Below, one piece after another: positions 1-59,871 of a stretch of 64,000 bases of DNA. The DNA comes from a virus: positions 117,652 to 181,651 of IMG/VR virus record IMGVR_UViG_3300045988_049479, one strand, 5' to 3'. The position numbers and the translations under genes are program-made. Each line of letters opens with the position of its first letter. Within the stretch, counting starts at the first letter, position 1. Under the pieces are notes generated by a model. That model ran no database searches, was not told the DNA's origin, and saw only the letters and a program-made list of their open reading frames with translations.

Positions 1-757
1 ACCCAATGTCAGATTCTAATCCCTTAGAACAATCTGTGTATAATAAGTATAAACCATTTAAATTGATATCCTTTTTAGAGCCATTACCTAACTCAACATA
101 ATTATGAGAACACATTGTTCCTTCGCAAGCTATAGAGTTTATGCAGAGTAAATGGTCCACATATACATTCCACGACTCTAATTTAGACCCAGGTTCTGTT
201 ATCATATCATTAGTCTCTACGGTAATTATCTAGTTATTTGCGTCTATGATAGTTTTTAAAGTTTTCTAGTCTTTAGTAAACATAAACTAGTTTACAGGGG
301 TCTCCTATAATGTAGTTGCTAACTTAGACTTATCTCCAACCCAAGCTAGCTTTTGGTTTATTTGTTCAGCGGAGAAATTTAAATTTTTGTAATTTTCCAT
401 TTATTAGATTTTTAATATTGTAAAGTACAATACTTAACAATTTTAAATTATTTATTCACAAGTCCAAAATCTTTTTTGACTTTGTTTTTAATATCCATTA
501 ATTTAGTAAGATATTCTTGATAATCTGTTATGATAGAAGAATCTGTGCTAAGGTTTTTTGTATAACTATTATACGAGTTGATTAAATCAAATTCTTCATC
601 TATGGTTATAAAACTTCTAATAATAGCTCTTACGCAATCCTTATAATTAGGTTGCCCATTAAGTAAAACCTAGATGAAATTGTACTAAGTTTCAAATTTA
701 GTACTGTCTTTCTCATCTAGTATTTCAACTTCAGCCTCAACTTCTCTTATATCGTAA

Positions 758-2032: not shown

Positions 2033-2104
2033 TTTTTATATATTTCATCGGAAGCTTTCGAGATTTAACCTACTAACACCCTTCATTTAACACTACGTTG
2101 TCTT

Positions 2105-2119
2105 TTGCCTAGAGGCAAG
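2105..2119 (-). other. Small hairpin (ttgcc-tagag-ggcaa) between TR and RT
   Basis: Inverted repeat read directly from the sequence. Confidence 0.3.
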
Positions 2120-2173
2120 GATATTACTTAGCAAACTAAAAAAATAAAATAAATTGTTCTAAATATATAATAA

Positions 2174-2271
2174 CTCGACATTGGAATTGGCATTGCTGAC
2201 GTCATTGTTAGAATTGAAATAGCTGAGACCTGCATTGCTGCCATTATTCGCGTTGCTGCCTACTAGCAGTT
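2174..2271 (-). repeat. DGR template repeat (TR), non-coding, rich in AAT/AAC codons in the VR frame (ANNGSNAGLSYFNSNNDVSNANSNVE)
   Basis: Aligns base-for-base without indels to 2373-2470 (offset 199) and to plus-strand 28831-28923. Of 25 mismatches against VR1, 23 fall where TR has A on the minus strand. In the VR frame the TR contains stop codons, so it is not coding. Confidence 0.85.
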
Positions 2272-2345
2272 CTTTTTTGCCAATCAACGGTTTTTAGAAG
2301 TAATATCCTACGATTTATATCTAAATCGATTTTCTATATTTTATC

Positions 2346-5192: not shown

Positions 5193-6251
5193 CTAATACT
5201 GATGTGTAGTATGGTAATTTTGATCTAAGTACTCCTTAGTAATATAGACTTTAGCATCATTTGTTACATCATACACATAGTAATATGTGTCAGGTTCTAT
5301 AGCCTCATCTTCTACCAGTTTTAAATATTCCTCTTCAGTTAATGTAACCAGATTAGGAACATCTGACATCATGGCGAATTGGTCTTCTCCAACAAACAAT
5401 CCATCAGATTTAACATCTACTACTAGCTAATCCTTCCCTTCTACTACTGGAGACTTTATCTATCCTACAGTAATACTTTCTAGGGAACCATCTCCATCTA
5501 CCTTTAAAGTCTTATCTAGCTCATCTTGAATAGCCTATTGGTCTTCGTCATACTATTTCTTTGTAACAAAGACAAAATCATCTCCTTCCATTCCTTCTCC
5601 TCTAAGACTTTCTTTGGTAACAAATATGTCATCAGTTTCTTCCTTAGTATAATGGTTAGATAAGGCTTTAGATAACAAGGATTCTGGGTCCTCTAAATCT
5701 AGATCAGTTTTAGGGGCATAATTCTCAGTTAACTCTTCAAGAGTAGCATACTTGGAAAGGTTAGAGATTGTCTAGTCTAAATCCGTTCTAATCTGTACGA
5801 CAGTAGTATTTAGAGCTTTCTATTTCAACTATTCCTCTATCTTTTTACCCCATTCTGCTGATAAATAAAACTAATCATCATCTAGGCTGTCTTCATATAT
5901 ATAATAATATGTTTCTGCATGAAGATATGTTTTATTTTCGTCTATAGGTTTAAAATCTTCTGTGGTATTTTCAGACCATTCCTTATATTCAGCCTCTGTA
6001 CAGGTGATTATCTAAATAGATTCATAAGAAGCTTTCCAACCTTCTTTGTATTTAATCTTAGACTTATCTACTAGCATATAAATATTTCCGTTATCTATAT
6101 TTGAAACGGTCATGCCTTGATAAGCATATTTCTCCGGAATAGAATATAATTCGTCTAAATTATCGACTACTGTTCTATTATCAAGAGGTTTAGGAGTTTC
6201 TACGGTTAAAGCAACGCCTAATGTAGCATCACCTGTATATTTAAATGCCAT
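5193..6251 (-). CDS. Amber-recoded acidic structural protein; ATG at 6249-6251 overlaps the upstream stop as TAATG; 3' end not determined (frame continues below 5193 through TAG)
   Basis: Manual translation from 6251 down through tracker ORFs 6012..6251 and 5193..5399 stays in one frame, interrupted only by TAG (for example 6012, 5871, 5829, 5820, 5772, 5694, 5553, 5535, 5517, 5466, 5460, 5427, 5193). Confidence 0.5.
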
Positions 6252-7840
6252 TATTGTGATAAAGTAAAGTTAATTTGATGAGGCAATGCTGAAGAATAAG
6301 TATCCTTCTTAGTCCATACTTTATAAGGAAATCCATTTATCTATTCAGTAGAAGTTTCCCAGCCACTTAAATCAACATTTAGGTATCCTAGTCCTCCATC
6401 TACTGTAAATGAATTTAGCTAAGTATTACTTCCAGGTAATTTTATAATAGCCTTTCCACTTAATGAAAATGTAATAATTCCAGAAGATTGTCCAAATGGA
6501 ACAAGACTCTATTTGATTAAACTATCTGTATTACCAGAATACCAAGGGTAGGTAGCAGTCACCTATGCTGTAGTTGATATTGAACCAGCCTCCACCCTCT
6601 TGTCTGTAACCTCTCCCTTGTTGTTAATAAGATATTCTCCAGCAGCATAATTTACGGTACCAGAATGCACATAAACACCGATAGAATCATATGTTTCAGA
6701 TTCTACAGGAGAATCATTATAGGTAATAGTTTCTTCTCTACCAGTTTCCTCTCCAGCATCATTTTTTATAAATGTTAAAGTAGGGGTAAGTAAAGCGGAT
6801 CCTACCTCCACAATCTAAGAGGTGAAGCTATAATACAACTAAGGATAAACCAAATCTCTAACAACAGTAGGAAATAATAGAGTGTCTATAATCTCATTAA
6901 ACGGCTTTCCTTTCAATTTTTCAACTGTAGTTCCTTGAATAACAGTAGAAGTAGTATCATCTGGAAGTTCAGTTTGATAAGTAGCTATAGTTTCTAAACT
7001 TGTCTATATATTTGTGATATTCTCAGTATTAGAATCTACTTTAGAATCAGTGTTCTTCTAAGCTTCCTATACTCCCTTAACTTCTTCCTTTACCTCTGTT
7101 AGAGATGGTTCCAGGTCTTTTACATATATTCCAGGTAGAACTACTGTGGAAGGTTCTCCTTCCTCCTCTACTGGAGGAATTTCCTACTGAATCAGATGTA
7201 TTGCATTATCCTCCTACTAAGATAGAATTACTTCTAGAGTATTATCATCCTTTATTTCTATGGTTTTGGAGTTTCTTAGACTATTAGTTATCCAATTCTA
7301 GATGTTTTTGTCAACATCTATATTTTTGATAGACTCATTAATATCCTCTATTGCCTCATTAATCTAGGTTATTTTCTCAGAAAGATTGTTTATGCCAGTT
7401 CTGTTAGATTCAATTTCTTCTTCAAGTTCTTCCTTAAGTACAGTAATAGAAGTTCTGATATTACTTATATCAACTTTTATTTCCTCTATTTCTTCTGTAT
7501 TAGCTTCGTACTAACTTATAAAGAATAAAGCATAATCTAAGGCATCTTTTACAGTATTGATATTCTCTGCAACATCACTAGTATAAGTCCATTTCTATTC
7601 TATGTACTATACTAAATCTTTCTAGGCTTCTATAGTTCCTTCTATATTTCCCCAAAGAAGACTCTACTCATCAGCGATACCTAGATTCTTTCTAACCTTA
7701 GCTCTTTCTAATTCAGTTCTATATTCTCCAAGATAGTTGTTTCTTAGGAGAGGTATAGGTTCACTTTTTATTAAATGTCCTTTCTTTCCACAAGGCTTTA
7801 TATCAGCATTGCTTACCGAAGTATAAATAGGCTGTATCAT
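6251..7840 (-). CDS. Amber-recoded coiled-coil tail-fibre or needle-like structural protein (about 529 codons, about 20 in-frame TAG)
   Basis: Manual translation from ATG 7838-7840 to TAA 6251-6253 in one frame. The only internal stops are TAG. The frame is closed upstream by a TGA at 7847-7849. Heptad-like, E/K/I-rich sequence. Confidence 0.6.
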
Positions 7841-10800
7841 TATGATTCAATAATTGCTATTTAATAAATTCGTGATTATCTAATTTTACGGGTAGGTTAA
7901 TAAAACAAATTAGATTCAAAATATCCTAATAATCTGGTCTATATCCCTTTCTAACCCTTTTAAGGAAATCCTCATACCTTTTAATAGCCTTTCTTTTAAG
8001 AGCATCCACAACCTATACGTTTATGTTCATGGTGATTGTTACAGAATCCACCGCAAGTACGGAACATTGCTAACAATCTTTCAGCTTCCATGAATTGTTT
8101 AAAGCCTATTAAATAATCTATAATGTTAAGTGTCATCCAGATAAAATCTCTTGCAAATATATCTGCATCATGTTCTCTAGTTAGACACTTATTTAATAAA
8201 GAGTCAAAGAGTTTCTTACAGTAGTTAATATAACACTATTGCAGATTTCCTGTAAAGAATACATCTACCTTACATTTTTTGATAGTAGTTCCTTCTATAT
8301 TTCTCTCAAGGATTTCTTTTACAGTACATTCCTCTAGCTCTCCATCTACTTCTTTATATAGTTTCTCTCCATCAGTTATATAGATAGTTTCATAATACTC
8401 CTTGTATTCATCAGATGAATTTTCATACCATTTCATATTAGGAAGAATTATGTGGTCTACTACATAATATCCATCTTCTTTCACCTTAAATGTACAAGAG
8501 TCTAAATCCTCTGTATGGTCATTGAGAAGTACGTCTATCAAAGTAGCATCTCCTATACTAACTTTTATGATAGTATTTAGGGTAGCACTTTCACTATACT
8601 TATAAGAATCATAGGAAGTTACTACCTCTAAATCTTCATCAATATACTATCCATATTCCTTTGAAAAGTCTTCAATAGTTATTTCCCCGTTAATCTGGGT
8701 ATGTATATCAATACTAAATTCCATATTATAATAATTAAGACTCAGTAGTAGGCCATTGACCATATTGAGCAGGAGTAGAAAATGGTTTCCACTTACCTTC
8801 TTGTCGTATACGTCTAGACATAAAAACTGAACTAAATGATAAACTAATATCTTGAGGATAGTCTGTCCATGTATATGACTAACCTTCAGGAGTCGGTGGT
8901 AGACTATTTAATTTACCAGCTGGTTTCCCATTCCAATAATAATTATAGTCATATGCCTTAGTTGGAGTAACAGTCGTTGTTTCATGTCCTTCTGAATCTA
9001 CATATAGAGGATTTCCATCCTCATCTGTTTTCTGCTTATACTCAATAACTGGAGTTATTCCCTCAGTTCTAGTGTATATATTCTAGATAATAGTAGAAAC
9101 ATCGCTTGCCACAATCTCATAAATAGTAGTTCCCTGAGATTCGTCAGCTCCCTAGAAAGTAAATTTAGTTCTTTTCCAGATGTATGGATTCTCTTCAGTT
9201 GGAAGTTCAAAAGTATCAGTCCACTATTTAGTAGATAATTTTATCTCAGATTCTTCAGCAGTATCAGCAGGTAAGTAATGAATCTTAATAATAATATTAT
9301 TTACCGCTTCACTAGAACCAGAAAGATCTGACACCTATTTAAATAGTTTCTTTAAATCTTCTTCCACATTTGATTTGGAACCAGAAGCATTACTAATAAT
9401 TACTGAACCATCTGAAATAGGATAAATCTATTGCTAATCCTTATTATATACAATTGTTCCAGTTGCCATATTAATGTATTTGTCTTATTTTGTCATTATA
9501 TGGATTTCCATCATGAAGCTAAGCTAACTCTATTTCAGTTCTCTTTTCTTCTATATCCATTTGTCTATCTTTATATGTAGAATCAGATTGAGCTTTGAGC
9601 CAGTTAACTTTATATTCTAACTACATTTTCTGCTACTCTAATCCTAATCTCTATTCATCCAAACTTTCTATCTTCTACTAAGCTTTCTATAGTTCTTGCT
9701 GTAACTGCTGTGCCTATTGTGAAGTTTCTTCCAGTTTTTCCTATAGCTGCTATAGCTAATTGTTTTCTTCTTTACGAATCTATACTGCTTTCTTAACCTT
9801 ATATTTAAGGTCTGTAAGACTCTTAGCAGTTAGTGCTTCAAATATGATGTCAGGATCCATTTGCTGACTTTTAACAAACTCTGGAATAATGGCTTTAATA
9901 GTTTGTAAATCTTCCATTACTTCAGAGCTAGAAGTTATATGGATGTCATAATCAGTAACCGTAAAATATTCTGGAAGTGCTGTAAATATCTGCTAGTATT
10001 TATCTCCAAGTATAATAGTACCAGTCAATCCTTTCTTATATGTTATTTTAGCCTAGTTTAGACTATCCAATAATATCTCACAAGTGATTAGGTCCATCTA
10101 CTAGAAATAATGCTTGGTTACTATGTAAGAGTTAGTAACACCTTGCTTAATATTAGTTACAGCATCGTGAGTTTCTATTCCATTTAATCTTTCTCTAAAT
10201 ACTCCAGTTATAGATGATGTAGTTTGTTCTACTGATTGAATTGCTAATTCAATAGCCTATACAGCCTAAGCTTTTAAGGTATCATCAAATCCATTGTATA
10301 TCTAGTTAGGTGCTTGCGCTCCGTCATTTCTCTCTTCCTAAGTAGAATCAATCCACATGATACCACCCTTCTTGTATGCTAACCATTTCTACACTCTTTC
10401 TGGCCATTTTACGCCTAGGTTAGTAGGAAGCAATGACATATCCATGATTACTCCAGCAGTACCGCTGTTAGCTATCAGGTTATCCCTATAATAATTTAAC
10501 AAGTCATATCTATCCTGTAGATGTGCACACTTTAATATCAGAGAGTACGGTTGTTGAGAACGATTTAAGAAATATACCCCATTCACAGACAAAGAGCAGA
10601 AATTAGGATTATCTTTTGACCTCATAACAGTCTTGTCTAGACCTCTCAGAATATATATTTCTTCTCCAATTCTAATGGTATTGTATCTCTACATTACAAA
10701 ATCGTCATCAGTTTCTATCCACTCTACATCATAAACAGGAATTAACTAAAATCTATGAGCACTATATTCATTATCTGGATATCCAGGAATAGTTTCATGA

Positions 10801-11839
10801 TTCTAGTCTTCGTTTACTATAGTACAAGTGTCACCATAAACTCTTCTATAAACTGCAGCTGAATCATCGGCTCTCCATTCATCTTTTAGTCTTTTCAGAT
10901 CTTCTCTAGAGATTTCTTTTCCGTATTTAGCTAATATCTAGCTTTTACTCATCCATTTTCTAACTACTACTCTATACGAATTTCTAACATATGGAGATTC
11001 TGGATTCCTATCTACGAAAGTATTTAAAGGATTCAGAACTTCTATTTCTATGTTAGTTCCAGAAGATGATGATTTTACTCTGAAAAATGTATAGCCAGTA
11101 ATTAATAAATCTGTAAGTAACTATCGGAGTTTAGTTATTAAATCGGTTTCTCTAGACTGCATAATATAATGAATAATATTCTATGCAGCTATCTCATATT
11201 GAGAAATAAAAGACTAATCAATGTCTTGAATAATTTTATCTAACTAAGTCTTCACGGCTTTATCTGTAATATCTTTTCCGTCGATAAATTTCAGAATAGA
11301 ATTACTTAAATGGTCTCTAAGAAATTTAACTATTCCTTTAGTTATTTCTAACTATTTTTCTCTGGTGATATTACTAATGGTATCTGAATCCTTACAAGAA
11401 ATCTTCGGAAGGATAGGGGTTCCTAGATATTCCCCTACTAGAGCATCTACGTGCTTTTTTAGTAATGGTGTAAATTCTACAGAAGTAGGACTACCTATTC
11501 CAAAGTTTTCTTCCAGGTAACGAAACTATTCTGGGTCTCTCTTTCCGTTATAGTAATTATAGGCTTTCTATAATTCGTACTTATCATATACAAGCTCCGC
11601 AATAGCCTCGTTCGTCTTGTCTATCAGTTCTTTTTCTTTCATAACATAAATTATGCTGTTCTGGAGGAAGTTTAGTTGCATTATAGTATTTAACTCTTTG
11701 TAACTTCCTACTTCTTAATTCTTCCTTTATAAATGGGAGAAATTCTTCATCAGGTAAATCAGCTATAATGACTAAAGGCATCTCTGACCTATCAAAGTTA
11801 AACGATACCTTATAACCAACTGGATCTAGGTTCTGAATT

Positions 11840-14200
11840 TCAAGCCCACCTACGTATTCCATTTTGTACAAGTCTCTCATATAACCTAGGATCACTTGTT
11901 TCAATTCTGTATGGGTCATCGTATTCATTTTTTTGTATGTTAGTTTCAAAAGTCTTAGAAGTTGGTATAACCCCAAATCTTTTGATTCCTCTCTCGTCGT
12001 AATAATAACCATAATCTTGGAATTGTTCAACTTCTTTTTCAACAAGCACTGGCTATCTTCCTGACAATTCCTAGTCTGCCAATTCTGTCATTCCCACAGC
12101 TGCTACAATATCGAATTTACCTTTATTCTCATCATTATATCCAGTAAATTGGTCTAACATTTCTTCAAACCATATAGTATGACAGAAATCCTCAATAAAG
12201 GCTGCTGTCAAATCAGTATGTTGTTCTATAATAGTTTTGGTAGCGGGTGTTCCGTACTATTTAGTAGTTCCATTCTTGACGTCTGTTAGAGTAGCTCTAG
12301 GTCTTTTCATAAAGTAGTTTAAACAACCCTTTTCTCTAGCCCAGGTAATCATACCTACACGGGTAGCTTCTATGTTTATTCTACAATTATAGTATCTAGC
12401 TAAACACATAGCTATTTTATAGGCTTCTCTAATGTCATTAGGTCTGTCTTTATACATAGCAACATACTACGGTTCGTTTAGACCAAATGCTCTTCTTTTT
12501 ATAGTTATACAGAAATCAGAAGGATCTCTTGTTTCTTTTGAAGTTTGACTAGCTCCTATATCAATACCGTCTATTCCTGCAACATATAAATCATGCATTT
12601 CTTTGTACGCTGGAGATTCAAATTCTTCTCCCCTTTCCTCGGCTTCCTATCTAAGTTTATCCATCTACTCTTTATACAAATCAGACCATACAGGATGTTC
12701 AAGTATTTTTACTTTTCCGTTAATATTAGGAATCCATTTAAAACCATCTATATTATCCTAGGTGTGTTTATTATTTTTATAGAAATAGTCTATGTATCCA
12801 GATTCTGGTCTTGGTCCTATTTTCTTAAGTCTTATATTAGCTAACTGGTCCGCAATAAGAATCTTGTTGAACTTGTTAACACCTTCAAGATTAAATGCTT
12901 CTTCTGCATTCCAACATCGTTCAGCACACTTCTTTAGATAGTCATCTGGAACTGCTAATAAATTGTCGCGCTCTTCCTATAGATACTTCTTATATTCTAC
13001 TGTATTACATACACCTCTATGGTCCATGTATTCTGAATTTAGAGACTAGACAAAATATGGAATGAAGAACCCACTTTCAATAGTAGTCCCATCCTGGGTA
13101 TAATTATGTCTAAATGGAAGAACTTTGTAAGCTTTTGGATTATAATATATCTTCTTAAGACCTGCTAATGGAGCGCCCATATCACCACCAGTACCTCCAA
13201 ATAACATTGTTCCACGAGGTTTACCTTGAACTTCACAAAGCTCTTGTCCCTACACTACAGCAGTATCTAGTCCAGGCCAAGATCCTGCTTCATCATATAT
13301 TAATAAGTCAACACGGTCTCCACGAATATTAGATGCCTTAGCTCCGTTTATTCCAACTACTTCCGATTTAAATCCAACATCCTCAAACTGTCCGTTTACC
13401 TTAATCTGTTTACCGGACTTCTTTCTTAAGTCTTGGTCAATCAAACGTAGTTTGAAGAATCCTCCTCCTGTACAAGTATTCAAGAATGTTAAAGCATTAT
13501 CAAACTTACTAAAAGTACCTTTAAGGAAGGTATCATTAAAACAGGTAATCATTACTCTGCTTCTTCTGATTACTGAATACATTCTTGCAGATAAGGATGC
13601 ATTTATTTCAGAGAATCCAATAGAACGAGCTTTCATAAGAGCTGCGTGTTTATGCAGAACTCTAGCCATCTATAGATAATGAAAGAACATATAATGAGAT
13701 GCGAAAAATATAGGAAAGTCACTACTTGTTCCTTCTCCAGATGCCTTGTTATCATCAATAATAGGAAGCTAGTAGAAGTTTAGGAAGAAATAGTTATCTC
13801 CAGTAATTGTATAACCATTAACAGTCATTCCATATTTACATCTTCTATACTATTCCTTCCAAAACTCATTATATCTCTTACTATCTTTTAGATATGGACA
13901 ATACTTTCCAGTTTTTCTATATACTTCTCTGGTCTCAGTAAACCAATCTGGGTCGAAATCAAGACCATGTGTTTCATCTATTGGTCTATATCCAGTTATT
14001 TCATAAGATAAAGTAGGGTCAAATACCTCTATCTTATCTCCTCTTTTTACATCCCAATAATCAGCATTTTTGCCTCTTTCCTCTCTTATCTTCTATACTA
14101 GTTCTCTAGCTTCTTTGGCATCCTCTTTTTGTTCTTTCTCTCTTACCTAATCTACTATATTCTAGATTTCTTCAGGTAATATTTTTTTCTTTCTAGGCAT
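11840..14200 (-). CDS. terL: Terminase large subunit-like protein, amber-recoded (about 16 in-frame TAG)
   Basis: Tracker ORFs 13250..13669, 12257..12457 and 11840..12049 are all in the same frame (start mod 3 = 1). I checked 12050-13250 triplet by triplet and found only TAG, no TAA or TGA. An ATG at 14198-14200 begins MPRKKK... A Walker-B-like VDLLIYDEAGSWPG and a C-terminal nuclease-like segment are present. The gene ends on TGA at 11840. Confidence 0.5.
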
Positions 14201-15582
14201 AATTAAAAGTCTCCTGGGTCAAAGCCGTCTGTAGCTCCACCTCTTACAGTAGATTGTTCTGTAAGCTCTTTCTTAACCTGCTCTTCTAGTGTTACTAATT
14301 CTTCATGAACTTTATGAAGAGTAGCCATTTCTTTCATTACCTTTTCAGCTTGAAAGACGGGTTTGCCATTATTATCACGTTCATTTAAATCTACTATAGT
14401 ATCAAAATAATCAATAAACTAGTCAGCTGCTCTTTTAGCTGCTTCTAGAAGTTTTATTGATTTGTTAGAATCCTACAATGCTCGGTATTTTCTACAGGCT
14501 TCCCTGAATAACGGGTCATTAAATTCGGATTCAGATAGTCCAGAGTCACTAATAGCTTCATCATGTCTTTCATGTTCTGAATATTGGCTATAGGGACTCT
14601 TCCAATCAATAGCTAGATAAATGTAAGATAATTCTCTAGTTACTCGTTCCTTGTCAACAGATTTATCTCTCTGTATCAAAGCCTTAAACTCTTTAACTAG
14701 AAGAAGCTCTGGTTCATTTATTTCTAACTATTTAGTTAAAGTGTTATAATTAAATACATTCATACTCATCAATCATTAACATTAACATCTTTAATCTTTT
14801 TATTTCATTTTAGAACCGCATTTACTTACTTTCATTTTAGAACCACAAGCATCTTTCTTAGCATACTTTGTTCTATCTGGAACCCATTTTCCATTTTTAA
14901 AGTTTCCCTTGTGTCCTCTATTTGCCATGACCTCCTAGTCATTATATTTATTAATAGATACAGAATCTCTGGATGCTTCATCCTTTGCAGATTTCATATC
15001 CTTTTTATACTAAGCTCTTCCAGCCTTGAACTTGTCAACTTCATTAGCTTTCTTAGTAACCTTAGTTCCTTTCTATGCTTTTTGGCAAGCTTTGCAGATT
15101 CTTCCTCCCTGTTTAAAATAAACAAGTTCCTCTCCTTCTGGGCATACTCCTTTTAATTTTTTATAGTATTCTAGTTTAGCTCCAAGTCTAGCCATAACTC
15201 CGCCTTGCATCTTCTACATAAATTCTTGATACTTGGCTTTGATTCCATCTTCTCCAAGCTACTCAGCGTAAGCCTATAAATCTTGCTCTGATTGTAGTTG
15301 TATCCCTTGTGCTTGGGCATCTTGTATCAAGTATGCCATGAATGCTTTCTGTAATTCTTCCTAATTAGCCATTACTCTTCTACTTTAATTAAATCCTTTG
15401 TATTAAATACTGCTTCCTGCATTAATCCAGAATCAGTAAACCATCTACATCTTAGTCCTCGTAATCCTTGGTTATCTTTAAATAAAGCTGCTTCTCTTCT
15501 TAGAACAAGCATAACTGGAGAGTGCATTACTTTACACTACCGTAAAGTAACACAATCCCCAGGCTTAAAATAAACTTTTTCA

Positions 15583-19549: not shown

Positions 19550-19566
19550 AACTATTAATTTTGGCG

Positions 19567-19638
19567 TTGCCCTACTAGGATTCGAACCCAGACTAAATGA
19601 TTTAGAGTCATCTGTGCTGACCATTACACCATAGGGCA
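19567..19638 (-). tRNA. Amber suppressor tRNA-Gln(CUA)
   Basis: Minus-strand sequence tgcccta-tg-gtgtaatggtcagcac-a-gatga-CTCTAAA-tcatt-tagt-ctgggttcgaatcctag-tagggca-a. The 7 bp acceptor is perfect, the D and T arms are canonical, and the anticodon stem carries one G.U pair. Loop CTCTAAA gives anticodon CTA. The D-arm, variable loop and T-arm nearly match tRNA-Gln(TTG) at 34204-34275. Confidence 0.85.
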
Positions 19639-20941: not shown

Positions 20942-21957
20942 AAGATTGGGGAGAAATCCCCTTTCTTTTACATACAAATAATCTTTGTAGAAATGGACAT
21001 AAGAAAAAAGTTTAAGACTATAAAGTGTTTGTATAATTGGGGCATAATCTATGACCCAAAGACTAATGAAAAGTTAAATTTCAAATCCAAACGTGTTTAT
21101 TGCGTAACTTCTTGGGCTTGGATTATGACCTATCAAAAGTCAGAAGAAGATATTCCTGAGATAATTAGGATAGTCTTTGTAGATTAACTCTAAGGTACTA
21201 TGAGTTTTAAATAAAGTGCCCACATGAACCCCATCATCGGAACGTTGGTTAACGGGGAAAACAACATCACAACAAATCAAATCAAAGTTTTTGTTTAGTT
21301 TTAGGATTGTATCTGGCAGCTTGGAAAGACAAGCAAAATCTTTATACCTATCTGCTAATAGGTTTAGTGTTCAACGCGAAAATTCGGTAAAGGAAGGAGA
21401 GAAATTGTCCACTAAAAAGACCCTCAATTTCCGGACTTTTTCCGATTTTCAAAAAATCCGCCAGAGTAGGAGTTATATAGCTCACACTCTCTATGGACAT
21501 TATTTAGTATTTAGCCTATAAAAAGGCAACAAAAAGCGAGGCTACGCAGAAGAGCCTAACACCAAAAATAACTGCTACAAATTCTATGTGCATATTCGCA
21601 AACTTGAGCACTATAGGATTTAGGTTGAGCTGTAAGGATTGGTCACTTATAGCAATATTATGAGTACTGCTGATATGTCAGTGACCGTACATATCACATA
21701 TAAAATATGTTATACAATTATGTTAGAAGTTGCCAGGTCTAAGAAGCCTGATTAAAATCTCTAGATAGTAAGAGAGAACCTCATAAGGGTTCATTTTCCA
21801 TCTCGAACCTATTCGCAAGTTTATAGACTAGCTATCTATAAATTTAGTGATGGAATACCAACGAAGTTGGTGTTCCCGCTTTGCGAACGTTGATAACGTC
21901 CTCAGCATGGAAAACTGAGAAATAATCTCCTATCTTATTCTAGATATAGATAGGATT

Positions 21958-22026
21958 TCCCTACTAGTATAATGGATTGCGTCTCCTTTAAAGGAGAAGA
22001 TTCTGGTTCAAGTCCAGAGTAGGGAA
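21958..22026 (+). tRNA. tRNA-like gene (69 nt) with non-canonical anticodon arm (tctcc-TTTAAA-ggaga, 6-nt loop; anticodon would be UUA or UAA)
   Basis: Acceptor tccctac/gtaggga pairs perfectly. T-arm is tctgg-ttcaagt-ccaga. It lies inside a 1 kb ORF-free region. Confidence 0.35.
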
Positions 22027-22628
22027 CTACTAAGTTGCAGTATTCATATTATTGTCGGACCATAATGGGTATGCCCTGAGACTATGCAGTCGTTGTGAAA
22101 CAACTCAAAGTATTGTGGCACAGGAAGGTCTGGTCGTTACTCTTTGCTTATTTTATTAATTTCCATTTTGACTAAAAGGCACAGCGGTGCCTTTACTCTC
22201 AAGATAAGAACAACCTTTACGTGGTTTGAGAGATAAGTAAGCTGCTTTAGCTGAAACTAATAGTTCTAGTAACAATTAAAAATATTTACCATGAAAGAGA
22301 AAATGAAACGTATTGAGGAGTACACTAAAGCAATGAGAGAGCTACTAGATAGACTCTTGGAGCAAAACCCAGATTCAGAGAATGAAATCTATGATGAAAT
22401 ATGGGGAGCTTATGTTGCAGGCATGAAGGTGTTCTTATAACTCCTATTCTAGCTGAGAATTAAAACTAGCTGGCTTTTATCACTCTTTGTAAAAGCTCAA
22501 AAATTAAAAAGAGAAATCTAGAACGGTAAGCCCGGCTCTCTTCATCCTTTAACTGATTTAGAAGTAAAACAGAAATTAGTTGGCAGCCTGGAATAGACAG
22601 GTATTTTTAACTAAAAATTATAGAAAAA

Positions 22629-40614: not shown

Positions 40615-40696
40615 TCCGATTTAGCTCAGTATGGTAGAGCGCCCATACCAATAAAGCATTAGTGGGAGGTCAGAGGTTCAAATCCTTTAATCGGAA
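40615..40696 (+). tRNA. tRNA-like gene (82 nt) with good acceptor, D and T arms but an unresolvable anticodon arm (gcccataccaataaagcattagtgggag)
   Basis: Acceptor tccgatt/aatcgga pairs perfectly. D-arm gctc-agtatggta-gagc. T-arm agagg-ttcaaat-ccttt. I could not fold the middle segment into a 5-bp stem with a 7-nt loop. Confidence 0.35.
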
Positions 40697-40782
40697 CGAC
40701 GAAACAAGGCTCCACAGCAGTTACAAGTTGTAACTGGTCTTATCTCCGAATAGCTAGTCTTACGGGGTGGAGAAGTAGTCAC

Positions 40783-40992: not shown

Positions 40993-41073
40993 ATCGTGGA
41001 GTAGAGAAGTTGGTCATCTCGCTAGGCTCATAACCTAGAAATCGTCATAAACGGTTCGAATCCTACCTCCGCA
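40993..41073 (+). pseudogene. Degenerate tRNA-like element; CAT anticodon arm (ctagg-CTCATAA-cctag) intact but T-stem and acceptor do not pair
   Basis: The D-stem gaga/tctc and the anticodon arm are fine. The 5' T-stem reads aacgg against cctac, and no complementary acceptor could be found. Confidence 0.3.
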
Positions 41074-41316
41074 ACTAAACTCCTTTTGTGGCTCTGTTAT
41101 TAGATTAATTATTAACAATTTTAAACTTTAATGTTATGAAGAAAGTAATTAATGTTGTAAAGAAAGCTGCTAAATGGTATTTTGAACAGAGTTCTAAGAA
41201 CTACACTTGGTTAGTGTCTGGAACAATACCTCCTCCATACAGAGGACAAGAGTAAAAATATCATTAAAAGGTAAGTACCAATGGGGTACTTACAGATGTC
41301 TGGGAGGAAATAATAT

Positions 41317-41401
41317 GTATGGTTAGCCAAGTGGCCGACGGCAGCGGGCTGTTAACCCGCCGTGAGAAATCCCATCGCAGGTTCGAATCCTGCACCATAC
41401 G
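41317..41401 (+). tRNA. Type II-sized tRNA (85 nt) with anticodon GTT (Asn codons) and a 16-nt unpaired variable region; atypical
   Basis: Acceptor gtatggt/accatac pairs perfectly. Anticodon arm gcggg-CTGTTAA-cccgc pairs perfectly. T-arm gcagg-ttcgaat-cctgc. Confidence 0.5.
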
Positions 41402-41561
41402 CCTTTTTGCTGAACCCTCCTTAGTTTTTAACTAAGCAATAGTAATCCAGCAAACTCTAGACCGATGTGAGGAAGAGAGTCGTCTAGACGGTAGCTAGCA
41501 CTGTAGTACGCAATGGTGGAATAGAAACGGCTAGCATCCACCAATTTTTAATTAATTAGAT

Positions 41562-44312: not shown

Positions 44313-44584
44313 GGCCTCTGATATAATCCAACTTAAAGACCTAAAGGATGGAGAATTTGCAGAAGTGATAGAATGGTTTGAGGATGGAACAGTATCTAAC
44401 GGAGATATAATTCAAAGATGTGGACTTGCACTATTTATATTAGGAAGTTGTTCTTACTATCCTGAGATATTTAGTAAGGGTGCTAGAGACTATACTAATA
44501 CTAAGTTACGAACACTACCTGAGGGTACAACTATAATGTTATAATTTCTTTTTCCAGTTTTCTAATTAAAGATAAACTGGGTAT

Positions 44585-45158
44585 GGGCCTACTTGGATTT
44601 GACAGGCGATTACAAATTATAAGGACGTGTAGAGCGCAATCTCTTTAAACGAAGGAAAAACAATAAATGCTACTTATAGCGAAGTAAGAATGGCAGCCTA
44701 AGCTGCTGGCTTGTTGGTAGACACTATTAACTAAGTCGGGTTACAGGAGAGACCTAGAAACAGAAGAGGTTGAGTATATTGATATAATGGAGAGCTAGGC
44801 TCTAATCCTAGTAATATACTCTTAATCGGAACACTCTAAGAGTTAGTAAGACTGAATCTCCTATGTCATAAAACAGATGGAAGATGTGTTCCATGAGATG
44901 TGACGAATCTCTAAAGTATCATCCCGTTCTCCAACGTAAAATGGAGTGGTGGAGCGACCGTTCGGTCAAGCCCAGTTTGGTAGTTTGTGAACAACTAAGT
45001 CGTAGCCTTACGAGGAGACGTAATTGGTGAATTAACACTCGGCTTCTTAGTAAAACTACCTACATGCTGAACTCAACAGCTGATGTAATAAAAATGAGAC
45101 GCACGTTATCCTTGTAACGAGGGTTGTTTGGACACGGGTTCGACTCCCGTTAGGTCCA
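44585..45158 (+). ncRNA. ssrA: tmRNA (ssrA)-like RNA with G3.U70 acceptor; putative tag ORF at 44636-44701 ends TAA
   Basis: The 5' end gggccta-cttggatttgacaggcg matches the conserved tmRNA 5' pattern (GGGG..UGGAUUCGAC.GG). The 3' end ggacacgggttcgactcccgt-taggtcc-a forms a T-arm plus an acceptor complementary to the 5' end. There is no ORF of 60 aa or more in the 1 kb region. A frame GCA...ATG GCA GCC TAA follows a UAGAGC resume-like context and gives AISLNEGKTINATYSEVRMAA. Confidence 0.55.
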
Positions 45159-45247
45159 CATTCTTTGTAGCAATTCCTGGCACGGGAGGTATCCTGATAT
45201 AAAGATACTTACAAATGTGCATTTTGCACGGTGGTACAAAGAGAAAT

Positions 45248-45321
45248 AGGGCTATAGCTCAACTGGTTAGAGCACCACACTGATAATGTGGAGGTTATCA
45301 GTTCAAGTCTGATTAGCCCTA
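45248..45321 (+). tRNA. tRNA-Ile(GAT)
   Basis: Acceptor agggcta/tagccct; anticodon arm ccaca-CTGATAA-tgtgg. Confidence 0.8.
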
Positions 45322-45388
45322 CAAAACCGCCAGCTCACGCGGTATATAAGAAAGGATTGCCGGACTCGCAGGTGTAACGAGATAAATA

Positions 45389-45461
45389 CCTGCATTTTCG
45401 AGGCTGTGGTGTAATGGCTTGCATATCACACTGTCACTGTGAAGGTTGGGGTTCGAATCCC
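45389..45461 (+). tRNA. tRNA-Asp(GTC)
   Basis: Acceptor cgaggct/agtctcg; anticodon arm tcaca-CTGTCAC-tgtga. Confidence 0.7.
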
Positions 45462-45468
45462 CCAGTCT

Positions 45469-45541
45469 CGGCATTTATTCCCCTGTAGTTTAGTTGGTTA
45501 GAACACGTGATTTGTAATCTCGAGACCTCGGTTCGAATCCG
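45469..45541 (+). tRNA. tRNA-Thr(TGT)
   Basis: Acceptor tcccctg/tggggga; anticodon loop TTTGTAA; T-arm ctcgg-ttcgaat-ccgag. Confidence 0.65.
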
Positions 45542-45578
45542 AGTGGGGGATCTTAACCATTAAATTAGATTAATTTTT

Positions 45579-54569: not shown

Positions 54570-55013
54570 ATGAGCAGGCTAGAAGTGTTCACTGATGGAG
54601 CTTTTAGCTCGTCTAGAGACACAGGAGGAGTAGGAGTTGTATTCGTAATTGATGGGGAAAAAGCCTATGAATTTAGTAAGATGATTCCTAATACTACTAA
54701 TAATAAATGTGAGTTGTTAGCAGTAATTTATGCTCTAAATGCAGTAAGTCGTAAAATCGAATCTCTGACTATTTACTCAGATTCTCAGTACGTCATAGGA
54801 TGTGCTACTAAAGGATGGAAAAGAAAGAAGAATGTAGAGTTATGGAATTTATACGACAAGGTCTTAAATAAGGCAAAGCAATTTTGTCCTAATATAGATT
54901 TTTGTTGGGTGAAAGGACATACTTCAAGTTCAGACTTCTTTTCTCAGATGAATAATCTCGCAGATAAATTAGCAGTTGAAGCAAGTCAGGAATATGAAAC
55001 TAAGAAAGAATAA
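54570..55013 (+). CDS. rnhA: RNase H (type I)
   Basis: The motifs EVFTDGA, CELLAVIYAL, IYSDSQYV and ADKLA are spaced as the D-E-D-D residues of RNase HI. Confidence 0.6.
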   Translation: MSRLEVFTDGAFSSSRDTGGVGVVFVIDGEKAYEFSKMIPNTTNNKCELLAVIYALNAVSRKIESLTIYSDSQYVIGCATKGWKRKKNVELWNLYDKVLNKAKQFCPNIDFCWVKGHTSSSDFFSQMNNLADKLAVEASQEYETKKE

Positions 55014-55426: not shown

Positions 55427-56443
55427 ATGAAGAAAATTTTTAGTATTATTTGTTTGTGTTTAATGTGCGTGTTTGCTAGCGCACAAGTTGTTGAAACTGG
55501 AAGTTTGAAAGATAACTGGTATGTTTCTGGTAATGTAGGTACTACAATTTGGGACAACTCAAGAAGTTGGGCTGAACCTCATGATGTATTAGTAAATATT
55601 GCGGTGGGTAAAGAAATTACTCCTATCTTCGGACTAGAGTTAGATATGATGGCAGGTATGAATCAAGGCAGTAAAACGTTCTTCGATTCCCATAACCTTA
55701 CAGCTAATGTAACTACTAATCTAACTAATCTTATTTGTGGATACGAAGGCTCTAGACGTTTATTTGAGCCTGTATTACTGATAGGTGCTGGTTGGTATCA
55801 TACTTATGGTGATGTTTATAATAATGTATCTGCAAGAGGTGCAATTAGATGCAACTTTAATATTACTGATAGTTGGGCACTAAATGTTACTCCAGAGTAT
55901 ATACTACTTCCAAAGACTACTCCTCTAAATCATGAAGTAAATGTTTATGTAGGAGCTACTTACCGATTTAAGTCTAATAAAGGAAACTTTCCTATGATGA
56001 AACTATATAGTGACGCTGAAGTAGAAAGTCTTAATGCTGCCATTAACGAGTTGAGGGCTAAGAATAGCGAATTGGAATCTCGTAAACCAGTAGAAATAAT
56101 TAAGACTGATACTATAGTAGTTACTAAAGTAGAACTTCTTACACCTAAAATTCAGTTTTTACAGAACTCTTCTGAAATCTCTACAACTTCTAATGTTGCA
56201 GTATCGGAGTTAGCAGCTTATATTTCAAATAGTGGTAAGTCATATATGATTGAGGGATATGCTTCTGAAGAAGGTCCAGTAGATTTTAATGACAACTTAG
56301 CTGTAGCTAGAGCAGAATCTATGAAGAAGGCCCTTATCAGTTATGGCGCTCCAGAGGATAAGCTTATAGTTAAAGGCTGCGGAAGCACTACTGAGTTTGG
56401 AGATAGAGAATTTAACAGAATCGTAATCGTAACAGAACAATGA
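55427..56443 (+). CDS. OmpA-family outer-membrane protein (signal peptide, beta-barrel-like N-domain, OmpA-like C-domain)
   Basis: Signal peptide MKKIFSIICLCLMCVFASA. The C-terminus YASEEGPVDFNDNLAVARAESMKKALISYG resembles the OmpA peptidoglycan-binding domain. Confidence 0.5.
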   Translation: MKKIFSIICLCLMCVFASAQVVETGSLKDNWYVSGNVGTTIWDNSRSWAEPHDVLVNIAVGKEITPIFGLELDMMAGMNQGSKTFFDSHNLTANVTTNLTNLICGYEGSRRLFEPVLLIGAGWYHTYGDVYNNVSARGAIRCNFNITDSWALNVTPEYILLPKTTPLNHEVNVYVGATYRFKSNKGNFPMMKLYSDAEVESLNAAINELRAKNSELESRKPVEIIKTDTIVVTKVELLTPKIQFLQNSSEISTTSNVAVSELAAYISNSGKSYMIEGYASEEGPVDFNDNLAVARAESMKKALISYGAPEDKLIVKGCGSTTEFGDREFNRIVIVTEQ

Positions 56444-57505: not shown

Positions 57506-58330
57506 TTGACTATGAGTAAGATAATAGGGCAAGACAAGTTAATTAAGGAAGTTAATAGAATATTTCAGGTATTTGTAAATAGTAATTGCAAGATAAGATC
57601 GCACTTTATTCTTACAGGTGAGAGTGGGTCTGGTAAGAGCTTTACTATTAAACAGTTATGTGATATGAATGAACTTAACTTTCTAGAAGTTAATGCAGCT
57701 CAAATAACTAAAGAGGGTATTTCTGGAAATAGTTTAAGCAAAATTCTATCTCCGCTTGTTAACTATAGTCACACACCTATCGTAGTCTTCGTAGACGAGT
57801 TTGATAAACTTTTCATCAACGGAAACACTAATAGCCAACTAGCTAATGAATCTACTGCCAGTGTACAGAACGAGTTTCTCAAACTTTTAGAGTCTGATAC
57901 TACTAGTGTTTTTGGCGATTATGGGAAGTACATATCAGTCCCTATTGATAATGTACTATTTGTGTTTGCCGGAGCGTTCAATAATGAGCCTCACATTACA
58001 TTAGATAGACTAAGAGACTTTGGAGTTAAAACAGAGTTTCTTGGAAGAGTAGGATTAATCTACAATACTAAACCTCTCACTCTAGAGGATTTGTATTCTA
58101 TCTTGGAGTGTTCAGACTTGTTACAGAATTATCTTGACTTATTCTTTAATGTGAATAGAGAACAAGTCATTAGTGATTTGAAAGGGTATCTTGAAAGCTC
58201 TTTTCGCAATAATACTCTTGGAGCAAGAACAATTAATACTCTTATTCACCAATACTTTATCAAAGGTGGAAAACTCGAAACTGAAGAAGTAAAAGAAATA
58301 ACTTTTAACAAAAAATTAGAATGGAAATAA
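57506..58330 (+). CDS. AAA+ ATPase (ClpX/MoxR-like)
   Basis: Walker A GESGSGKS; Walker B VVFVDEFDK. Confidence 0.5.
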   Translation: MTMSKIIGQDKLIKEVNRIFQVFVNSNCKIRSHFILTGESGSGKSFTIKQLCDMNELNFLEVNAAQITKEGISGNSLSKILSPLVNYSHTPIVVFVDEFDKLFINGNTNSQLANESTASVQNEFLKLLESDTTSVFGDYGKYISVPIDNVLFVFAGAFNNEPHITLDRLRDFGVKTEFLGRVGLIYNTKPLTLEDLYSILECSDLLQNYLDLFFNVNREQVISDLKGYLESSFRNNTLGARTINTLIHQYFIKGGKLETEEVKEITFNKKLEWK

Positions 58331-59871
58331 TTAATGCTACAGATGGTTACAAATTGGGCCATCACAGAATGTACCCCGAAGGTACTGAACAAGTTTATAG
58401 TAACTGGACTCCTAGAAGTAATAAATACTTCCCAGAAGCAACCGAAGGTTCAGTAGTATTTGGTATTCAATACCTAATCAAAGAATATCTCATTAAACAG
58501 TTTGAGAAAAACTTCTTTAATTTACCAAAGAAGGAAGCTGTGGAGATGTTCTATCGTAGAGTAAACAACTTTGTTGGTATTGAATCCGTTGGGTACAGAC
58601 ATATTGAAGCTTTATATGACCTTGGGTATCTACCAATTCGCATAAAGGCTCTTCCTGAAGGTTCTGTGTGCCCTATTCGGGTTCCCATGATGACCATTAC
58701 AAATACCCTACCCGAGTTCTTTTGGTTAACTAACTACTTAGAGACTATTATCAGCTGTACCTTGTGGATGCCATGCACATCTGCTACTAGAGCTAGGCTT
58801 TATAAGAAAGAGCTACATCGTCATGCTTGCAAGACTGGTTTTCCAACAGATGTAAATCTTGGTTTTTGTTGTCATGATTTCTCAATGCGAGGTATGGCGG
58901 GAATGGAAGCTGCAATCATATCTGGTATGGCGCATATGACTTCTTTTGTGGGAAGTGAGACTATTCCAGCTATTGCTGCCCTGGAAGAATATTATGGAGC
59001 TAATTCAGACGAGGAATTGATTGCTGCTACAGTTCCAGCAACAGAACACTCTGTAATGTGTGCTGGAGGGGAGGAAGATGAGCTGGGCACTTTCAAACGT
59101 CTAATTAATGATTTGTATCCTTCTGGGTTTGTTTCTATTGTATCTGATACTTGGGATTTCTGGAATGTAATTGAAAATTTCTTACCCAAGCTGAAGAAAG
59201 ACATTATGGCTCGTGATGGTAGAGTAGTAATCCGTCCTGATAGTGGAGACCCAGTAGATATAATCTGCGGGTTGAGAACTAATCCTCACTTCAATACCAG
59301 AATGAAAGAAGGTAAGTATTATTGCTGCTATGCTCCGTTTAACGACGATGCAGAGTATGTTGAAGTGTCCGAAGGTCAATATTATGGGGCATATTATATG
59401 CTTGGTAAAATCTTCGGATGGAATACTACTTCAAAGGATTACCGCTATCCTAGCACTAAGGTTGGTCTGCTTTATGGAGATTCTATTACTCTAGAACGTC
59501 AAAAGCAAATCTACTTGAGATTAGAAAACGCTCATATGGCGGCTTGTAATCTCGTTCTTGGAGTAGGTTCATATTCCTATCAGTATGCAAGTAGAGATAG
59601 TCTTGGGTTTGCTATTAAGGCTACTGCTTGCGTAGTAAATGGCGAGTTGAAAGAAATCTTCAAACATCCTAAAACTGATGATGGTACTAAGAACTCTTTG
59701 AAAGGTTTGATTGCTGTCTATAAAGGTCTGGATGGGAAGTATACTGCTACCGACCAGGTCTCAATCGAGGAAGAAAAAGAGGGATGCTTAGAGACTGTCT
59801 TTGAAGATGGTATCTTGAAGAAAGAATATTCTCTTGAAGAAATCAGACAAAGAATTGACCATGGACTTTAA
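58321..59871 (+). CDS. nadV: Nicotinamide phosphoribosyltransferase (NAMPT/NadV)
   Basis: The stretches ATDGYKLGHHRMYPEGTEQVY, IKALPEGSVCPIRVPMMTITNTLPEFFWLTNYLETI, HDFSMRG, VSDTWD and IRPDSGDP match conserved NAMPT blocks. Confidence 0.75.
   Translation: MEIINATDGYKLGHHRMYPEGTEQVYSNWTPRSNKYFPEATEGSVVFGIQYLIKEYLIKQFEKNFFNLPKKEAVEMFYRRVNNFVGIESVGYRHIEALYDLGYLPIRIKALPEGSVCPIRVPMMTITNTLPEFFWLTNYLETIISCTLWMPCTSATRARLYKKELHRHACKTGFPTDVNLGFCCHDFSMRGMAGMEAAIISGMAHMTSFVGSETIPAIAALEEYYGANSDEELIAATVPATEHSVMCAGGEEDELGTFKRLINDLYPSGFVSIVSDTWDFWNVIENFLPKLKKDIMARDGRVVIRPDSGDPVDIICGLRTNPHFNTRMKEGKYYCCYAPFNDDAEYVEVSEGQYYGAYYMLGKIFGWNTTSKDYRYPSTKVGLLYGDSITLERQKQIYLRLENAHMAACNLVLGVGSYSYQYASRDSLGFAIKATACVVNGELKEIFKHPKTDDGTKNSLKGLIAVYKGLDGKYTATDQVSIEEEKEGCLETVFEDGILKKEYSLEEIRQRIDHGL

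Follow-up and report, generated by a model that had tools for sequence, protein, structure and literature searches.

A putative one-piece tmRNA enlarged by exchangeable structured modules in a TAG-recoding crAss-like phage of the human gut

Genes for transfer-messenger RNA (tmRNA), which is among the best-catalogued structured RNAs, are known in a standard, an intron-containing and a permuted form, and phages contribute 79 of the 97,179 curated sequences in the tmRNA database (PMC11915505). Introns are known only in the TΨC loop, and the intron search behind that database combined a size cut-off of 500 base pairs (bp) with a bit-score cut-off, which together excluded all non-intron sequences (PMC11915505). 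The encoded tag most commonly counts 10 residues (PMC11915505); in Bacteroides the native tag, GETNYALAA, acts as a strong degron (bioRxiv 10.1101/2025.03.18.644028). When E. coli has no UAG termination, the ribosomes at UAG codons are resolved by tmRNA, which also decides the propagation of UAG-containing viruses (Ma et al., PMC6207430). Neither the recoding survey (bioRxiv 10.1101/2021.08.26.457843) nor the paper on zeta crAss-like phages (PMC12386605) mentions tmRNA or ribosome rescue. Here we describe a stretch of 64,000 nucleotides (nt) from IMG/VR virus record IMGVR_UViG_3300045988_049479 (positions 117,652 to 181,651; hereafter the window, whose numbering is used throughout), in which an element on the plus strand appears to be a complete tmRNA gene that is about 50% longer than ordinary tmRNAs.

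We propose, with a probability of roughly 80%, that this element is a genuine phage-encoded tmRNA of the standard one-piece form that serves in ribosome rescue; that it is a tmRNA homologue under selection we regard as nearly certain. The Rfam tmRNA model RF00023, whose gathering score is 47, reaches 63.1 bits over 44585-45161 (E = 2.7e-22), and all model positions (1-374 of 374) are covered. The RNA begins with GGGCCUACUUGGAUUUGACAGGCG, and the succession of 5′ acceptor strand, tag and 3′ acceptor strand is the standard gene order. The G3·U70 pair of the acceptor stem, the identity element for alanine, is formed by G44587 and U45155 and is invariant in 52 of 52 distinct copies, and the discriminator A (A73) is found in 30 of 30 aligned relatives. 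Since the three bases directly after the discriminator are CAU, the 3′ CCA is not encoded by the gene. The gene shows all the sequence and structural features that alanylation identity and a tag frame require, all of them under purifying selection.

An initial annotation, made from the letters of the window alone, had pointed to a tmRNA-like gene with this 5′ end, T-arm, acceptor strand and G3·U70 pair, and each of these is indeed found where it had been placed. The tmRNA identity is borne out by the RF00023 match, which comes from the Infernal-type check with Rfam tmRNA models that had been suggested, and by covariation among relatives; the length of about 574 nt, long for a tmRNA, holds as well. 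The same annotation had doubted the 5′ boundary and considered a permuted two-piece form. Neither point is supported: the boundaries are right, and the permuted form is rejected by the gene order and by model RF04321, which reaches 23.4 bits against a cut-off of 47 and matches the 5′ part only. The stretch of about 1 kb in which it had seen no open reading frame (ORF) of 60 amino acids or more runs from 44545 to 45578 and also houses tRNA-Ile, tRNA-Asp and tRNA-Thr; no conserved ORF was found inside the tmRNA element.

The comparison with relatives carries much of the argument. Pattern scans of IMG/VR yielded viral contigs by the dozen, often with a length of about 185-190 kb, and one scan of metagenome assemblies added 45 further contigs, of which the descriptively named ones are human-gut assemblies. 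From these viral and metagenomic contigs of the human gut we obtained 52 distinct complete relatives of 514-601 nt (single contigs are cited below by L numbers), with no shorter intermediates. An annotated phage collection holds only two unannotated GenBank fragments, MT837398 and MT836666, both from Mexican human faecal samples. The pseudoknot 2 (PK2) motif of the RNA is absent from 185,579 species-representative genomes save for two contigs of metagenome-assembled genomes (MAGs), one of them 130 kb long and binned with Muribaculaceae; both are probably binned phage. Other viral contigs with the same 3′ end hold tmRNAs of ordinary size (338-420 nt, with scores of 84-131 bits), which makes the gene in the window an enlarged version of a normal tmRNA. 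ARAGORN, which the initial annotation had named as a check, reports no tmRNA in the whole window or in 44400-45300. This outcome could be traced to a limitation of the tool: it misses 9 of 10 expanded copies tested and gives the tenth (L003) a wrong tag, whereas normal-length viral genes are detected with sensible tags.

Covariation was assessed by placing a structure built by hand, with 18 helices of which two are pseudoknot stems, on an alignment of 30 sequences with a mean identity of 69%. Standard pairs fill 90.8% of the cells compared to 37-48% in slid controls, 34 pairs are altered on both sides (6-20 in the controls) and the covariation score is 0.190 (0.04-0.07 in the controls). On four of five measures, 0 of 500 shuffles reach the observed value. 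Compensatory changes occur in the acceptor stem P1, the T-arm, P2, H5, an extra hairpin and a long-range helix. An exhaustive helix scan over column pairs was dropped as too noisy, given that it admitted G·U pairs in an RNA rich in A and U; the hand-built structure was instead combined with an anchor-based extraction for each sequence. This extraction shows compensation at acceptor positions 6 (U-A/A-U) and 7 (A-U/U-A/G-C) and at three positions of the T-stem. P2 exists in 13 sequence variants that all fold as the same interrupted long helix, with 8 pairs in helices 2-4 changed on both sides, and H5 of L056 has exchanged CAGC/GCUG for CUGC/GCAG.

The initial annotation had also advised a search for pseudoknots 1 to 4 (PK1 to PK4), with a divided result. 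A PK2-type motif and a PK4-type hairpin are recognizable; the PK1 position of the window's clade shows a hairpin only. In divergent clades the PK1-position stem is lengthened to AGAGUUG/CAACUCU, and a second stem of 3 bp appears, as read by eye, to covary. For PK4, a candidate second stem joins the loop CUCA (45072-75) to UGAG (45095-98) across an A-rich linker and amounts to an invariant 3 bp, CUC/GAG. As separate observations on the acceptor and T-arm region, L071 and L091 have the T-loop AGCGUUA in place of UUCGANU, and L063/L080/L092, L088 and L104 have other acceptor stems, ending in ...CAAGUCCA or ...CAUCUCCA.

The tag frame is conserved at the level of the peptide, yet not in the form first predicted. 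A start at a GCA codon and a 21-residue tag, AISLNEGKTINATYSEVRMAA, had been assumed. This reading fails in the relatives, where indels break the frame: in about half of the lineages it is shifted by an indel of 1 nt that lies shortly before the resume codon, in L001 it meets a TAA just ahead of the true resume codon, and the in-frame translation upstream of the resume codon is unrelated between lineages. The conserved frame has 10 codons in the window and 9-11 codons, counted from an Ala or Gly codon, in every lineage. The family comprises ATYSEVRMAA, AAYSEVRMAA, ANYSEVRMAA, AEIAPVRMAA and AEIDYNRMAA, as well as AERSEYRMAA, ATTSVRMAA, GNTEVRMAA, GNTTYRMAA and GETEGYLRMAA, and RMAA closes the tag in all 52 copies. 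The last Ala codon is GCC, GCG or GCU and the penultimate one GCA or GCU; this synonymous variation indicates selection on the tag peptide. As had been claimed, the frame of the window terminates on TAA (...GCA GCC UAA). Across the copies the first stop is UAA in 49, UGA in three and UAG in none of the 52, with UAA followed by UAG in two copies.

A comparison with tags from Bacteroidota, likewise proposed at the outset, gives a mixed picture. The relatives that resume on Gly (GETEGYLRMAA, GNTEVRMAA, GNTTYRMAA) resemble the N-terminus of GETNYALAA. This indicates that the gene originated in Bacteroidota, which agrees with the crAss-like terminase described below. The C-terminus differs, however: the ALAA degron end of the Bacteroides tag is replaced by RMAA in 52 of 52 copies, and the tag of the window resumes on Ala.

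The extra length, some 200 nt, lies in the middle of the RNA, where the Rfam alignment counts 253 nt in the window versus 33 nt in the consensus. We cut the RNAs at conserved anchors and folded each variant separately. The added length is built from stem-closed modules that lineages have exchanged; it represents no intron and gives no sign of a permuted form. The features are listed in Table 1. Beyond H5 lies an extra hairpin, 6 of whose 12 pairs have changed on both sides (e.g., A-U and G-C). It is followed by a PK2-type motif with AGGAGA in its loop (44745-50). The 3′ part of the alpha_tmRNA model (Alphaproteobacteria) recognizes 44738-44770 (GGGUUAC-GGAGAGACC-UAGAAACAGAA) as a pseudoknot motif, so that the insertion opens with a genuine PK2-type element; its near invariance among the recovered copies has to be read with the fact that it also served as a search pattern for them. 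The site of module V1 is occupied by unrelated variants of 31, 46, 51 or 75 nt in different lineages, each with a closing stem of 6-11 bp, and L057 has a fifth variant; in the window V1 contains a candidate inner pseudoknot, AGAG-CUAGG-CUCU-AAU-CCUAG. Indels in module V2 are not multiples of three. The region of the small hairpins (helices 11-13) is 81-100% paired with some double changes. In the long hairpin domain a second stem, ACUAAG (44994-99) with CUUAGU (45046-51), encloses a variable core and covaries among lineages (ACUAAG/CUUAGU, AUUAG/CUAAU, AUAAG/CUUAU, ACUAG/CUAGU), and 11 of 17 distinct cores fold within the same closing stem. Pairing in the alignment is low for the V1 closing stem (69%) and for this second stem (43%), because MAFFT cannot align mosaic modules; most variants fold with those stems. 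The mosaic character is illustrated by L014, which joins the tag of one clade to the middle of another.

Table 1. Coordinates of the proposed tmRNA gene and of its parts in the window
Feature	Positions	Strand	Remarks
One-piece tmRNA (ssrA) gene, complete	44585-45158	+	574 nt counted to discriminator A
Acceptor stem, 5′ strand GGGCCUA	44585-44591	+	7 bp with 45151-45157; G44587 = G3
P2 long helix	5′ strand 44603-44630; 3′ strand 45101-45129	+	helices 2-4 98-100% paired
Hairpin AGAG-CGCAAU-CUCU at PK1 position	44631-44644	+	stem invariant in the window's clade
Tag frame ATYSEVRMAA	44669-44701	+	resume GCU 44669, last codon to 44698, UAA 44699-44701; Rfam alignment, relatives
Hairpin H5, UGGCAGC-CUAA-GCUGCUG	44691-44708	+	stop codon in loop; RNAalifold; helix 6 97% paired
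Extra hairpin GCUU-GUUGGUAG-ACA-CUAUUAAC-U-AAGU	44709-44736	+	between H5 and PK2; helix 7 93% paired
PK2-type motif, tail AGAAACAGAAGAGGUU	44738-44771	+	stem 1 GGGUU 44738-42 / GACCU 44751-55, 100% paired
Module V1, closed by GAGUAUAUU with AAUAUACUC	44772-44821	+	stem-closed variants at this site
Middle block UUAAUCGGAACACUCUAAGAGUUAGUAAGACUGAA	44822-44856	+	conserved in two sequence forms (alignments A2, A3)
Downstream strand AAUCUCCU of long-range helix	44855-44862	+	two alternative upstream partners
Module V2	44863-44928	+	about 66 nt in window, about 25 nt in other lineages; length and sequence variable
Two small hairpins	44929-44967	+	CUCCA 44929-33 / UGGAG 44942-46; GACC 44956-59 / GGUC 44964-67
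Long hairpin domain, outer stem GGUAGUUU/AAACUACC	44979-45060	+	helix 14, 96% paired
PK4-type element, hairpin GCUG/CAGC	45066-45098	+	stem 1 100% paired
T-arm ACGGG-UUCGACU-CCCGU	45134-45150	+	T-loop intact, without intron; helix 18 100% paired
Acceptor 3′ strand UAGGUCC; discriminator A	45151-45157; 45158	+	pairs with GGGCCUA

V1 and the middle block are enclosed by a long-range helix, for which two pairings come into consideration. In the consensus PK2 the loop sequence GGAG pairs with a CCUCC that follows immediately; in the window the loop AGGAGA has a single partner, UCUCCU (44857-62), from which it is separated by V1 and the middle block, some 100 nt in all. The resulting loop helix has 5-6 bp in every distinct variant, although a helix of 5-6 bp with G·U pairs is expected by chance in about 5% of the windows inside one RNA. 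Its closing pair is A-U, U-A, G·U or U·G depending on the lineage, L057 forms it with GGAAGG/CCUUUC, and the L003 group carries a one-base insertion that is coordinated on both strands (GGAGAA/UUCUCC). When loop and strand come from the same lineage, a helix of at least 6 bp is formed in 11 of 13 cases, compared to 38% for mismatched lineage pairs. The alternative is a nested helix of GAGGUU (44766-71) with AAUCUC (44855-60), which uses the same downstream strand and is equally conserved in length. We favour the loop helix because both of its strands change and its topology is canonical. A switch between the two helices is possible.

The phage that carries the gene is, by its sequence, a crAss-like phage of the human gut whose late genes are TAG-recoded. 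The first 16 kb of the window have almost no long ORFs in the standard code, yet are covered for 81-100% once TAG is read as sense, and the minus-strand genes at 448-15372 contain up to 32 in-frame TAGs per gene. When TAG is translated as Gln, a terminase large subunit (phrog_6681, 1e-61) and a portal protein (phrog_6547, 3e-47) emerge, and these matches arise only with TAG as a sense codon. The terminase shares 26-29% sequence identity with its counterparts in crAss-like phages that have Bacteroidota as hosts. A suppressor tRNA(CUA) at 19566-19638 (minus strand), most similar to the phage's own tRNA-Gln(UUG) at 34204-34276, heads a minus-strand block whose downstream genes are TAG-dense. The views of the initial annotation that the gene is phage-encoded and that its phage recodes TAG are both confirmed by these data. 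The tmRNA itself is located in a plus-strand, nearly TAG-free block of standard code that also contains the 26 other tRNA genes of this strand. CCA is encoded in 0 of the 28 tRNA genes, and all but one end in the discriminator plus C, like the tmRNA.

Based on the homology with described tmRNAs, we infer the following course of processing, CCA addition, charging, SmpB-aided entry, tagging and termination. The RNA would be transcribed within the early standard-code gene block, inside the tRNA array, trimmed as its neighbouring tRNAs are, and supplied with its 3′ CCA by a CCA-adding enzyme. Alanyl-tRNA synthetase would charge it with alanine via G3·U70 and A73, after which it would enter stalled ribosomes with SmpB, presumably that of the host. 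Translation would resume at GCU 44669, append ATYSEVRMAA to the nascent chain and end at UAA. The additional 200 nt or so would be retained as structured modules in the pseudoknot ring, namely a hairpin, two variable cassettes and the long hairpin domain. For the phage the benefit most likely lies in an extra or replacement capacity for ribosome rescue during infection: with TAG suppressed, ribosomes should run through TAG stops and more of them would stall. In addition, the tag has a phage-specific C-terminus, RMAA, in place of the LAA of Bacteroides. A phage tmRNA with its own degron would be a plausible response to the stalls and read-through expected from TAG suppression.

Several points weigh against this interpretation. 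Pfam scans of 43 ORFs in the window, which is about one third of a genome of about 185 kb, found no SmpB, release factor or CCA-adding enzyme. The 63 bits for RF00023 are modest compared to the 84-131 bits of normal-length phage tmRNAs. The PK1 position of the window's clade lacks an evident second pseudoknot stem, that of PK4 is invariant and gives no covariation signal, and no clear PK3 is seen. The loop helix and the nested helix are mutually exclusive and fit the data about equally. The tmRNA gene can be lost, as L050 and L065 lack the 3′ acceptor strand. The functional link between tmRNA and recoding, and with it the reason why the phage carries the gene, is drawn from genomic context only. 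Finally, UAA is the usual tmRNA stop in any organism. The initial annotation had suggested that a phage which recodes TAG would need a TAA-terminated tag. This fits insofar as UAG never comes first, but given the general use of UAA it does not discriminate in favour of recoding.

A more far-reaching version of the rescue proposal would make the oversized tmRNA part of the code-switching toolkit of the phage, with three linked roles taken as one reading; as such we consider it doubtful. If true, the RNA would clear ribosomes that have passed TAG stops of host or early genes, or that have stalled at TAG before the suppressor tRNA accumulates; it would mark the products with a phage-specific RMAA degron and so change their fate; and its modules would bind phage or host factors, or shield the RNA from host nucleases or tmRNA-targeting defence systems.

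It is distinctly improbable that the RNA is made but mainly serves a purpose other than tagging. It might compete with the SmpB, the tmRNA or the ribosome rescue of the host or act as a decoy for them, or its expansion modules might make it a scaffold or sponge. Such a role has a precedent in mycobacteriophage DS6A, whose tag-less tmRNA-like RNA inhibits host tmRNA (PMC11915505), and it would suit both the missing SmpB among the window ORFs scanned and the large, position-conserved expansions that are exchanged as cassettes, which suggests that they bind something. Unlike in DS6A, however, the tag is under selection as a peptide (RMAA end, synonymous Ala codons, 9-11 codons, stop in the H5 loop), and these features would be superfluous in a pure decoy. 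The expansions also lack significant complementarity to the rest of the window; similarity and complementarity searches returned only 11-15-mers at chance level.

Less likely still is an intron-containing tmRNA, in which an insertion of about 250 nt (about 44714-44966) would be excised partly or wholly at a new site to leave a mature RNA of normal size. A length of 514-601 nt otherwise falls in the range of intron forms, the smallest of which counts 545 bp, the database authors concede that introns outside the T-loop may have been missed (PMC11915505), and conserved blocks alternating with variable stem-loops are loosely reminiscent of an intron core with peripheral elements. Moreover, group I introns do occur in this lineage, as in L055. 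Nevertheless, no Rfam intron family is found in the insertion even at E<=10 with permissive filters, and the same library retrieves the T-loop intron of L055 at 94.4 bits; as this positive control shows, it is able to detect such introns in this lineage. The insertion's first conserved block is a canonical PK2 motif, the variable modules are simple stem-closed cassettes, and none of the 52 distinct copies lacks the insertion, the shortest being 514 nt. A group I intron in the T-loop of the window was also considered and rejected, as UUCGACU is intact and RF00028 gives no match at E<=1 or E<=10.

It is hardly credible that the element derives from a host ssrA gene that was captured and is now decaying without function, or that it is an integration-site remnant: tmRNA genes are common integration sites (PMC11915505), L050 and L065 have their 3′ acceptor strand replaced by unrelated sequence and the covariance-model score is low for a tmRNA, but the tag shows conservation of its peptide, cellular genomes lack the motif save for the two MAG contigs that are probably binned phage, and the 52 distinct copies show compensatory changes in every core helix with an invariant G3·U70, a covariation that pseudogenes do not display and that largely refutes such decay.

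Some relatives deserve mention for the state of their tmRNA gene. In L055 a group I intron (RF00028) occupies 7740-7977 in the TΨC loop of an expanded tmRNA, after CGCGGUU, and L097 has the same sequence at that point of the T-loop; in both phage contigs the tmRNA gene is of the intron form. Near the gene of L055, at L055:10164-10261, there is a RAGATH-34 RNA. In the independent contigs L050 (about 7390-7960) and L065 the 3′ acceptor strand of the tmRNA is lost: after CCCGUU the sequence runs GGCGUUACUAUG..., followed by a terminator-like hairpin, and they look like broken genes or like the outcome of recombination at the tmRNA 3′ end.

Between the stop codon of the preceding ORF and the tmRNA, directly 5′ of the latter, the window has a 7-bp inverted repeat (CCAGUUU...AAACUGG, 44555-44581, plus strand), whose position is taken by a different hairpin in relatives. 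A sigma-70 promoter scan, which does not cover promoters of the Bacteroidota type, gave nothing near the tmRNA 5′ end, and its 'terminator' hit is hairpin H5. At 45176-45188 (plus strand), 18 nt past the tmRNA, stands CCTGGCACGGGAG, which occurs once only in the window and resembles CTCCTGGCAYGAGAGTATAATCRTGC just upstream of the tmRNA in L045 and L048/L049/L051/L055; it may be a promoter-like or processing motif. CCTGGCAYGNGAG, located just 5′ of the tmRNA in some relatives, was considered as a recurrent promoter and discarded, as its single occurrence in the window is just 3′ of the gene.

Elsewhere in the window, a RAGATH-14 RNA (21725-21931, plus strand; 156.6 bits against a cut-off of 149.1) is situated 26 nt upstream of an odd tRNA-like gene at 21958-22027 (plus strand), which ARAGORN reports as 'tRNA-???' with a 2-nt anticodon and the Rfam tRNA model scores at 49.6 bits. 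Three tRNA calls exceed the usual length of their type, Tyr(AUA) with 83 nt (40615-40697), Met with 81 nt (40995-41075) and Asn with 87 nt (41317-41403), and the anticodon AUA of the tRNA-Tyr is itself unusual. An ORF in the tRNA array (35276-35683, plus strand) has a tRNA-ligase cyclic phosphodiesterase domain of the 2H type (PF08302, 2.1e-07) and may be involved in tRNA repair. In the recoded part, a reverse transcriptase ORF at 758-1762 (minus strand; Pfam RVT_1, 9.8e-17, YADD motif, 6 in-frame TAGs) adjoins a large TAG-rich ORF at 2346-4166 (minus strand), and the two may form a diversity-generating retroelement as described for zeta crAss-like phages. The standard-code block also holds auxiliary genes at 58321-59868, 55427-56440, 54570-55010 and 31031-32986 (plus strand), for a NAMPT/NAPRTase-family phosphoribosyltransferase, an OmpA-like outer-membrane beta-barrel protein, RNase H and an SPFH/Band 7 protein.

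The analysis has consequences for the annotation of tmRNA genes and for the biology of recoding phages. The standard one-piece form can reach 514-601 nt through exchangeable structured cassettes in the pseudoknot ring, a length that overlaps the size range which, together with a bit-score cut-off, flagged intron-containing genes in the database work. ARAGORN is used in phage annotation pipelines and was used in the huge-phage survey, and because it almost always misses the expanded form, tmRNA carriage in gut phages is probably undercounted. That a TAG-recoding crAss-like phage has an RNA for ribosome rescue in its early block makes a connection of rescue with recoding testable. The invariant RMAA, set against GETNYALAA of Bacteroides, provides a natural experiment in degron specificity, and the RMAA tag may serve as a tunable degradation tag in Bacteroides.

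Compared to the standard bacterial tmRNA (RF00023), the expanded RNA has the same 7-bp acceptor stem with G3·U70 and A73, T-arm, long P2, Ala or Gly resume codon, tag of about 10 residues, stop codon in H5, PK2-type motif and PK4-type hairpin ahead of the P2 3′ strand. It differs in its length of 574 nt (514-601 nt in the family) versus the 338-420 nt of normal-length viral tmRNAs, which is due to the extra hairpin after H5, about 100 nt enclosed at PK2, a second cassette and a 90-nt hairpin domain; in addition, the PK1 position has a hairpin only, the tag ends in RMAA instead of LAA, and the gene is encoded by a phage. Similar to the tmRNAs of huge phages (PMC7162821) and mycobacteriophages, it is phage-borne, surrounded by phage tRNA genes and presumed to act in rescue during infection. 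Those tmRNAs are of ordinary size and were found by ARAGORN, whereas the expanded family is mostly missed by it and belongs to a TAG-recoding lineage of crAss-like gut phages. Intron-form tmRNA genes have a similar gene length, and L055 and L097 carry such a T-loop intron; in the window, however, the T-loop is intact, no intron model matches and the extra length is found in the pseudoknot ring. While phage tmRNAs as such are already known, this family combines an intron-less standard form of 514-601 nt with cassette-like expansions and an RMAA tag. We judge the expanded tmRNA to be a member of the tmRNA family with a new structure rather than a new kind of element.

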